Below are positions 2,052 through 2,225 of a stretch of 5,030 nt of DNA, one piece after another (the stretch's first letter is position 1; each line of letters begins with the position of its first letter). The stretch comes from a virus (Duplodnaviria; Heunggongvirae; Uroviricota; Caudoviricetes), in IMG/VR virus record IMGVR_UViG_2534681831_000045; one strand, given 5' to 3'. The position numbers and the translations under genes are program-made. The notes under the pieces were generated by a model. That model did not search any database, was not told where the DNA came from, and worked only from the letters and a program-made list of their open reading frames with translations.

Positions 2052-2225
2052 ATGAAAGATCAAAAAGCAACCAAGCCACAGGTTAAGTTCGACACAATGA
2101 AAGCATTCGCAGGTATGGGTGCTGCTGTTGAAGTTCTGATGAAGGCTGCTCCTAATGCGTTCACTCACGCTACTGTCTCTGGTAAAGAGCAGCAGGGTAA
2201 GCTTCGTCGTCGCAAAGCAGCATGA
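2052..2225 (+). CDS. Small hypothetical protein, 57 aa (MKDQKATKPQVKFDTMKAFAGMGAAVEVLMKAAPNAFTHATVSGKEQQGKLRRRKAA); not in the supplied ORF track
   Basis: Seen: ATG at 2052 preceded by GGGAG (2041-2045) with a 6-nt spacer, stop TGA at 2223-2225, and a strong intrinsic terminator 20 nt downstream. It has an Ala/Gly-rich central segment and a basic C-terminal tail. Probably omitted from the track only because of a length cutoff. Confidence 0.55.
   Translation: MKDQKATKPQVKFDTMKAFAGMGAAVEVLMKAAPNAFTHATVSGKEQQGKLRRRKAA

Follow-up and report, generated by a model that had tools for sequence, protein, structure and literature searches.

A small phage gene that depends on its GNAT-fold neighbor: a mobile cassette of enterobacterial prophages and perhaps a new kind of toxin-antitoxin or phage-defense module

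Reverse-order type II toxin-antitoxin pairs, and type II pairs whose antitoxin has no DNA-binding domain, include higBA, mqsRA, hicAB, and the paaR2-paaA2-parE2 system of an enterohemorrhagic Escherichia coli (EHEC) prophage. In such pairs the toxin gene precedes that of the antitoxin and/or the antitoxin, like PaaA2, is very small and largely disordered; they are prophage-borne, and extra signals for antitoxin expression lie inside the operon. GNAT-fold acetyltransferases are the toxins of another group, TacAT, AtaRT, KacAT, and ItaRT, where the antitoxin is an RHH (DUF1778) protein. Here we describe a phage locus that shares traits with both groups: an open reading frame (ORF) of 57 amino acids, hereafter the small ORF, which lies downstream of a gene for an acidic protein with a predicted GNAT fold. 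The DNA analyzed, IMG/VR virus record IMGVR_UViG_2534681831_000045 (Caudoviricetes), is a stretch of 5,030 nucleotides and is called the window throughout. That the small gene is an obligate partner of the phage-borne GNAT gene in a mobile cassette is firmly supported; the two products probably work as a pair, and perhaps they form a new kind of toxin-antitoxin or phage-defense module.

The cassette consists, in order, of a conserved -10 box, the GNAT gene, a hairpin-rich leader of ~190 nucleotides, a Shine-Dalgarno sequence, the small ORF, and a terminator. In the window these elements lie as follows.

1284-1289, plus strand: TATAAT -10 box, candidate cassette promoter, ~33 nucleotides 5' of the GNAT start codon
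1319 or 1322 to 1855, plus strand: GNAT gene, 178 or 177 amino acids; the 177-amino-acid product (1322-1855) is an acidic protein of predicted GNAT fold, phrog_4350, gp23 of phage mEp460
1859-1888, plus strand: TAGACG-N18-TAGGAT, weak candidate internal promoter, which overlaps a palindrome immediately 3' of the GNAT stop codon
1897-2040, plus strand: structured leader (5' untranslated region) of the small ORF, with hairpins at 1897-1918, 1961-1981, 1985-2007, and 2022-2040
2041-2045, plus strand: Shine-Dalgarno GGGAG, 6-nucleotide spacer to the ATG, read from the sequence
2052-2225, plus strand: small ORF, 57 amino acids, ATG start, TGA stop at 2223-2225
2244-2276: intrinsic terminator (hairpin 2244-2269) from the terminator scan, between the small gene (plus strand) and the convergent PrtN/excisionase-like gene (minus strand)

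A preliminary description of this DNA, made from the letters alone, had given the small ORF the same coordinates and translation and had placed a GGGAG before it at ideal spacing, and both points held. The strong intrinsic terminator that it described is likewise present, but begins 18 rather than 20 nucleotides past the stop codon. The hairpin, GAAAACCCGCC-TTCA-GGCGGGTTTTT, has an 11-bp stem with 6 G-C pairs, a 4-nucleotide loop, and a T-rich tail, and was the top-ranked site of the terminator scan in the window. Of the other genera inspected, all but Photorhabdus (L010) have an equivalent hairpin and T-run 3' of the small ORF, and GGAG, GAGG, or AGGGG occurs at the same spacing before the start codon in all divergent homologous loci inspected. 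On the minus strand only about four T residues follow the hairpin; the terminator may be partly bidirectional. Searches of Rfam 15 at permissive E-values returned only sub-threshold, terminator-driven matches at 2174-2277, with at most 29.9 bits against gathering thresholds of 43-80. The small ORF is indeed unlisted in an ORF track drawn at the 60-amino-acid default, but that is a mere length threshold, and at a 30-amino-acid minimum it is listed. The suggestion that annotation had missed the protein was mistaken: the Prokaryotic Genome Annotation Pipeline (PGAP) lists it in RefSeq as WP_000654815.1, "hypothetical protein," it is gp24 (YP_007112098.1) of phage mEp460, and it matches the phrog_2741 hidden Markov model over its full length (E 8.1e-36, residues 1-57 to profile positions 1-57 of 57). 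The exact protein sequence is present on at least 1000 public contigs, where it is labelled "hypothetical protein" or "phage protein." Both PHROG families of the cassette, phrog_2741 and phrog_4350, are annotated "unknown function."

Sequence searches gave 48 clusters of homologs of the small protein, from Escherichia, Salmonella, Enterobacter, Atlantibacter, Franconibacter, Cronobacter, and Hafnia, and more copies were found from the context of GNAT homologs in Photorhabdus, Edwardsiella, Serratia, and Shewanella. The family is narrow: at 50% identity, 1.84 billion proteins include only 13 representatives of it. Its reading frame was intact in every GNAT-homolog locus (112/112), where it specifies 36 distinct proteins of 54-61 amino acids; frame and length were kept down to ~35% protein identity, and the length changes among divergent loci were of whole codons. 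Pairwise ratios of non-synonymous to synonymous substitution (dN/dS) among eight divergent loci were 0.07-0.32, and differences at codon positions one, two, and three numbered 473, 426, and 827, respectively, a third-position excess. At the protein level, an F/Y-D-T motif, a helix of the form (A/V)(F/Y)..MGAAV(E/D).L.KAAP, and a QG(K/R) motif are conserved. By these substitution patterns the small ORF is a genuine protein-coding gene under purifying selection. The preliminary description had judged the frame non-random and had named frame conservation and the balance of synonymous and non-synonymous changes as the way to check it; the results agree on both counts, with selection acting at the protein level. 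An ORF open by chance in non-coding or terminator-proximal RNA might be argued from its mere 57 codons and its lack of database matches: no Pfam or NCBIfam match was found at E<=0.1-1, and the family profile matched no PDB sequence at E<=10. Frame and length conservation, dN/dS well below one, the third-position excess, indels in threes, the conserved Shine-Dalgarno, and the full-length PHROG match effectively refute that explanation, which we find scarcely conceivable. Models of known anti-phage defense systems in PADLOC-DB matched neither the small protein nor the GNAT protein at E<=1. Literature searches by accession and peptide sequence found no translation evidence for the small protein.

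The two genes of the cassette travel together. All loci with a GNAT homolog (112/112) also encode a homolog of the small protein, 93-197 nucleotides downstream, with GNAT identity falling as low as 40%. The intact pair occurs in 358 of 5426 complete E. coli genomes (~1 in 15), including O157:H7 and O111 strains, and both window proteins are 100% identical to gp23 and gp24 of mEp460. Several genomic slots are used: in the window and in mEp460, the cassette sits beside the attachment site (att) and an excisionase-like gene, elsewhere it lies between antiterminator Q and the holin/lysis genes, and in Photorhabdus it is found inside the tail-gene region. In Hafnia (L003-L005; L003 about 2150-3109), a gene with a RelA/SpoT domain resembling toxSAS/CapRel stands directly upstream of the cassette, between Q and holin, an arrangement that suggests a stacked accessory or defense slot. 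Variants of the -10 hexamer (TATAAT, TACAAT, TAAAAT, TAGAAT, and TAAGAT, several of them after TG) were seen 30-45 nucleotides 5' of the GNAT ATG in most of 25 distinct loci inspected, irrespective of the flanking genes, and in Q-holin loci a terminator often precedes the hexamer. The box at 1284-1289 has a poor -35 element and so was not reported by the promoter scan. With a -10 box before the GNAT gene and a terminator after the small ORF, the unit thus has a self-contained moron anatomy.

The most direct evidence that the small gene depends on its neighbor comes from genomes in which the neighbor has been replaced. The small ORF and its terminator are present in 562 of the 5426 complete E. 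coli genomes, and only 358 of these 562 have a GNAT gene of the window type, leaving ~200 without it. In the three GNAT-less genomes inspected, the GNAT gene and the leader are replaced by genes for a Panacea-domain protein of 190 amino acids and a protein of 128 amino acids (PanT; the pair is WP_000458583.1 and WP_014640052.1), which sit at the identical dusA-prophage end, between the dusA remnant and the small ORF/PrtN gene. Homology to the window resumes at a recombination junction 14 nucleotides 5' of the small-ORF ATG in these Panacea-type loci (L114-L182, e.g., L116 1486-2687; NZ_CP087290.1). The two proteins form a toxin-antitoxin pair of the PanA type; Panacea (PanA) is an established promiscuous antitoxin domain (PMC8832971; PMC10440598). 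Variants were counted in loci drawn from IMG/VR and from genomes, and the ratios of non-synonymous to synonymous variation (pN/pS) were as follows.

Panacea-associated small ORF: 67 full-length copies, 3 synonymous and 15 non-synonymous variants, pN/pS 1.46
Panacea-associated PanT (128 amino acids): 69 copies, 12 synonymous and 3 non-synonymous, pN/pS 0.07
Panacea-associated PrtN: 68 copies, 17 synonymous and 12 non-synonymous, pN/pS 0.19
GNAT-associated small ORF: 71 copies, 9 synonymous and 3 non-synonymous, pN/pS 0.10
GNAT-associated GNAT: 71 copies, 121 synonymous and 45 non-synonymous, pN/pS 0.10

The Panacea-associated small ORF fits neutrality (p = 0.78), and its balance of synonymous and non-synonymous variants differs from that in the GNAT context (Fisher p = 0.0024). 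The changes strike P34 and K50, which are otherwise invariant in the family, and the terminal Ala-Ala; the tail-residue variants R54L, A56V, and A57V would fit a tail that matters only when GNAT is present. Two further Panacea-associated copies are shortened by frameshift, and divergent Panacea-type loci have no small ORF at all. A ratio near one might have been an artifact of a young clade, but this was rejected because PanT and PrtN are constrained in the very same loci. Since the small ORF is unconstrained without GNAT while the flanking genes are constrained, the small protein matters only together with GNAT; as judged from these variant counts, purifying selection on the small gene depends on the presence of the GNAT gene. 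The natural exchange of GNAT for Panacea is in effect a ready-made evolutionary control for this dependence.

The same comparison bears on an explanation raised in the preliminary description, namely that the small product acts on nucleic acid or at a membrane surface, here as an independent phage protein whose adjacency to GNAT is incidental. It has basic tails and an amphipathic helix, its own Shine-Dalgarno, terminator, and possibly promoter, and it is full-length in the ~200 E. coli genomes without GNAT. An independent function is, however, hard to reconcile with neutral drift, altered invariant residues, and frameshifts in precisely those genomes while flanking genes stay constrained, with divergent Panacea-type loci that have dispensed with the ORF, and with a small protein that co-diverges with GNAT across genera. 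Nor was any hydrophobic stretch able to span a membrane found by Kyte-Doolittle analysis: the best 19-residue mean is 1.0, and the central helix carries E and K. The proposed nucleic-acid or membrane-surface role was thus not confirmed, the evidence favoring a partnership with GNAT, and we consider an independent protein very improbable.

Decay seems to run in one direction. In the O111:H8 strain 08-4455 (NZ_CP077540.1; L199, 1046-2895), IS1203, an insertion sequence (IS) of the IS3 family, interrupts the GNAT gene, of which two short ORFs are annotated; the small ORF downstream is identical to that of the window. No clean assembly was found with the small ORF disrupted and GNAT intact. Two candidates (L112 and L113; P0009) were rejected as broken-small-ORF loci, as they contain scattered single-base indels at homopolymers that are most likely sequencing errors; in L112 they fall in both genes, and in L113 they affect the leader, the small ORF, and the vicinity of the GNAT start. 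P0029, another candidate, proved to be the Panacea-associated frameshift copy.

The segment between the two genes is itself conserved in part of the family. The 196-nucleotide intergenic spacer of the window folds with -58.6 kcal/mol (z = -3.7), and none of 200 shuffled sequences folds as well; the hairpin at 2022-2040 abuts the Shine-Dalgarno of the small ORF. Pairing was assessed on an unfitted MAFFT alignment of 15 loci, with slid 3' partners as the control. Pairing was retained in 86% of cells, compared with 24-44% when partners were slid, and the covariation score was 0.284 against 0.06-0.11. Double changes occur in six pairs, the middle helix is compensatory in 4/8 pairs, and G-U wobbles available only on the plus strand occupy 43 cells as opposed to 20 A-C cells, which would wobble only on the minus strand. 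Rfam 15 contains no match within 1856-2051. Searches with a covariance model found the leader in Enterobacteriaceae-type cassettes alone, where it is conserved beyond the window in L008, L016-L018, L023, L083, L089, and L099-L111; cassettes of Photorhabdus, Xenorhabdus, Brenneria, and Shewanella keep the protein pair but have a spacer of another length and sequence. At the upstream edge of the spacer, TA[GC]GAT is invariant in the 15 aligned leaders. TAGACG-N18-TAGGAT matches 8 of 12 consensus positions and went unflagged by the promoter scan; on its sequence, it could be a weak internal promoter of the small gene. An overlapping ORF of 43 amino acids (1955-2086), without a Pfam or PHROG match, and the antisense ORFs at 2031-2168 and 2060-2164 fall inside the leader or the small ORF.

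Such a leader might carry a major part of the function, possibly together with the small-ORF mRNA, the peptide being only one part; it could, for example, control in cis how much small protein is made relative to GNAT, or be an RNA that acts on GNAT or on a target. Covariation and the strand-specific wobbles speak for real hairpins, and the leader was lost together with GNAT where the Panacea pair came in. In addition, synonymous divergence (pS) between the window and four loci of other genera (L006, L008, L010, and L014) is 0.38-0.56 for the small ORF as against 0.84-0.85 for the GNAT gene, although codon bias would explain that difference too. We nevertheless hold a leading role for the RNA to be improbable, because genera that have no such leader keep the protein pair and because the small ORF is under clear protein-level constraint.

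The codon usage of the small ORF resembles that of highly expressed E. coli genes. Its codon adaptation index, computed with Sharp-Li weights, is ~0.56, twice that of the GNAT gene and above the 0.13-0.31 of every other gene in the window, and ranges over 0.52-0.61 in other Enterobacteriaceae cassettes, which suggests selection for heavy translation. The structure model of the product shows a single amphipathic helix (residues 15-32) between disordered, basic tails, with a predicted local distance difference test (pLDDT) score of 63. Its isoelectric point (pI) is ~10.4, which is also the median across 39 pairs. All members of the family have a C-terminal basic stretch with AA or VA as the last two residues (RRRKAA, SRKVAA, SKKAVA, NHRQAA, and ENKKAA are examples). 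C-terminal degrons recognized by ClpX include ssrA (...YALAA), RseA (...MGVAA), and MuA (...RRKKAI) (PMC8138137); in the tails of the small proteins, a basic run like that of MuA seems to be joined to a terminal Ala-Ala or Val-Ala like that of ssrA, which is a resemblance only.

The GNAT protein is recognizable by fold only. It matches phrog_4350 over its full length (E 2e-103), and no sequence match was found in Pfam, NCBIfam, PADLOC, or PDB. The predicted structure is a confident GNAT acetyltransferase fold (pLDDT 92); Foldseek against PDB gave 314 matches at E<=1e-3, and the 50 listed were essentially all GNAT-fold acetyltransferases. Structural neighbors include the tRNA-acetylating GNAT toxins TacT3, AtaT, and KacT, but the model is no closer to these toxins than to NatD or RimI. 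The protein is acidic in all 39 pairs, with a median pI of 4.5, and net charges are complementary in 39/39 pairs (GNAT, -5 to -18; small protein, +5 to +9). As for its start, the length of 177 amino acids given in the preliminary description, which named the gene only as a control, is correct with initiation at the second ATG (1322); this is preceded by a Shine-Dalgarno GAGAGG at 1311-1316 with 5-nucleotide spacing, and homologs begin ML.

Taken together, we think it quite possible, though somewhat short of an even chance, that the small protein is an antitoxin-like, labile neutralizing partner that restrains GNAT. A strong Shine-Dalgarno, high codon adaptation, and possibly a weak promoter of its own would cause it to be made in excess; its one conserved amphipathic helix (FDT..AF..MGAAVEVLMKAAP) and its basic tails would bind the acidic GNAT and keep the enzyme restrained. 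With its invariant C-terminal basic stretch and Ala-Ala, it would be degraded by ClpXP and hence short-lived. The cassette would then behave like a reverse-order type II toxin-antitoxin or abortive-infection module: should production of the small protein cease, for example when a second phage infects or the prophage is lost, the enzyme would be free to act on a cellular target. Support for a neutralizing partner comes from the location of the cassette in phage accessory slots, including that beside the RelA/SpoT toxSAS-like gene in Hafnia, and from the alternative occupation of the same slot by the Panacea toxin-antitoxin pair. It also comes from the asymmetry in codon adaptation between the small ORF and GNAT, from the direction of decay (GNAT split with the small ORF intact, the converse not being seen in clean assemblies), and from the tRNA-acetylating toxins among the structural neighbors of the GNAT model. 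The opposite charges, the combination of one helix with disorder, and the degron-like tail are indirect signs.

Several points weigh against neutralization. Enzyme-first order and a structured spacer of ~190 nucleotides are unusual for type II pairs, and the small protein lacks a DNA-binding domain and resembles neither DUF1778/RHH antitoxins nor any entry of Pfam, NCBIfam, PADLOC, or PDB. A strongly acidic GNAT would appear to suit tRNA binding poorly and a basic protein substrate better, the codon adaptation index rests on the Sharp-Li weights used, and dependence on GNAT is equally to be expected if the small protein were a substrate or cofactor. This last is the main rival: the basic, lysine-rich small protein would be acetylated by GNAT at its N-terminus or on lysines, or would be an adaptor that the enzyme needs, and the modified or complexed form would be the effector, for instance on nucleic acid or a host protein. 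NatD- and RimI-like structural neighbors and the acidity of GNAT fit such a pair well. NatD/Naa40 (histone H4/H2A) and RimI (ribosomal protein S18) are N-terminal acetyltransferases with small basic substrates, but GNAT shares only 10-13% identity with them, neither is encoded beside its substrate, as GNAT and the small gene are beside each other, and acetylation of the small protein here is putative. To our knowledge, an acetyltransferase encoded with its own small substrate in one phage cassette would be without precedent. A disordered protein with a conserved basic and Ala-Ala C-terminus looks built to be unstable, which would suit an effector less well, and the same genomic slot otherwise holds a toxin-antitoxin pair; we regard an enzyme-substrate or enzyme-cofactor pair as possible but rather doubtful. 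Returning to the neutralizing partner, its fullest form is put forward only tentatively: a toxin-antitoxin or abortive-infection module of reverse order, so far undescribed, in temperate enterobacterial phages, with a highly divergent acidic GNAT, an abundant, ClpXP-timed, one-helix basic partner unlike known antitoxins, and a new cis-regulatory leader.

The window comes from an E. coli chromosome and covers one end of a lambdoid prophage that is similar to mEp460 and inserted in dusA. Apart from the cassette, it contains the following.

1-708: yjbM/DUF2713, with its own terminator
About 1088-1175 (fragment 1065-1193, MQKINQTSAMPEKTDVHWSGRFSVAPMLD...), plus strand: dusA 5' remnant, marking the prophage end
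2273-2581, minus strand: PrtN-family/excisionase-like gene, stop codon at 2273-2275
2591-3166, minus strand: 3'-5' exonuclease
3163-3897, minus strand: DUF551 protein, 244 amino acids
Between the DUF551 gene and the IS3-family transposase, minus strand: two small phage ORFs
4719-5009 (running off the window end, 4719-5030), minus strand: 3' end of an IS3-family transposase (orfB)

RefSeq has a partial tRNA-dihydrouridine synthase at the position equivalent to the dusA remnant, and the cassette is the first element inside the prophage, next to this remnant. The dusA 5' fragment at 1065-1193 indicates that the prophage integrated in dusA and that the window is the prophage end distal to the integrase. 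In mEp460, the phage attachment site (attP) separates the integrase from the cassette, the integrase being on the other side of this junction, so that int and the excisionase-like gene come to lie at opposite prophage ends. The transposase end at 4719-5030 shows that the prophage early region is interrupted there; in O157:H7 PV15-279 it is the exonuclease gene that is cut, by a different element, ISEc8 (IS66 family). The DUF551 protein and a 138-amino-acid protein (4144-4560, minus strand) have alike N-terminal segments, MNTLTKEWLQNTITSIES versus MAELTKWLQNTITGIET, and both match phrog_660 and phrog_60; it looks like a duplicated or modular N-terminal domain within the early-left operon. A 193-nucleotide small RNA (sRNA), sRNA-17, was described from an mEp460-like prophage of E. 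coli K1 RS218 in a study in which "hypothetical protein" genes were removed before intergenic regions were defined (PMC7719688). Its overlap with this locus was rejected: the sequence, taken from the primers and alignment in that paper, is absent from the window at <=3 mismatches.

The small ORF itself was already catalogued as a hypothetical phage protein; what is apparently undescribed is its context, a widespread mobile cassette of GNAT and small protein with a structured leader, swappable with a Panacea pair. Literature searches (accession, peptide, mEp460, and GNAT toxin-antitoxin prophage) turned up neither an experiment on the pair nor a description of the pairing, of the leader, or of the degron-like tail. 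If the cassette is a toxin-antitoxin or defense module, an antitoxin type unrelated to RHH/DUF1778 would join the GNAT toxin family, and a function would be assigned to two PHROG families, listed as "unknown," that occur in hundreds of genomes of pathogenic E. coli. The predictions (toxicity and rescue, binding, ClpXP lability, acetylation, and phage exclusion) are accessible to standard E. coli genetics.

Set against described systems, the pair shows the broad traits of type II toxin-antitoxin pairs, being made up of adjacent genes that are inherited as a unit and depend on each other. With TacAT, AtaRT, KacAT, and ItaRT it shares an enzyme of predicted GNAT fold, but the protein here is acidic and without a Pfam acetyltransferase match. 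In TacAT, AtaRT, and KacAT, the antitoxin gene is upstream and adjacent or overlapping, whereas here the small gene lies 93-197 nucleotides downstream of the GNAT stop codon; and the antitoxins of those systems have an RHH/DUF1778 domain, whereas the small protein has neither such a domain nor sequence similarity to one. Because both gene order and antitoxin domain differ, the pair falls outside the known GNAT/DUF1778 family. The Panacea pair uses the same dusA-prophage slot and is apparently a functional alternative, but its proteins are unrelated, and the small ORF, absent from divergent Panacea loci and decaying beside the pair elsewhere, is not part of that system. Compared with higBA, mqsRA, hicAB, and paaA2, there is no relation in sequence or fold, the enzyme is a GNAT, and the internal promoter is only a weak candidate; the likeness lies in an order with the toxin, here the enzyme, in front and/or a small disordered partner, the prophage location, and the additional expression signals within the operon.

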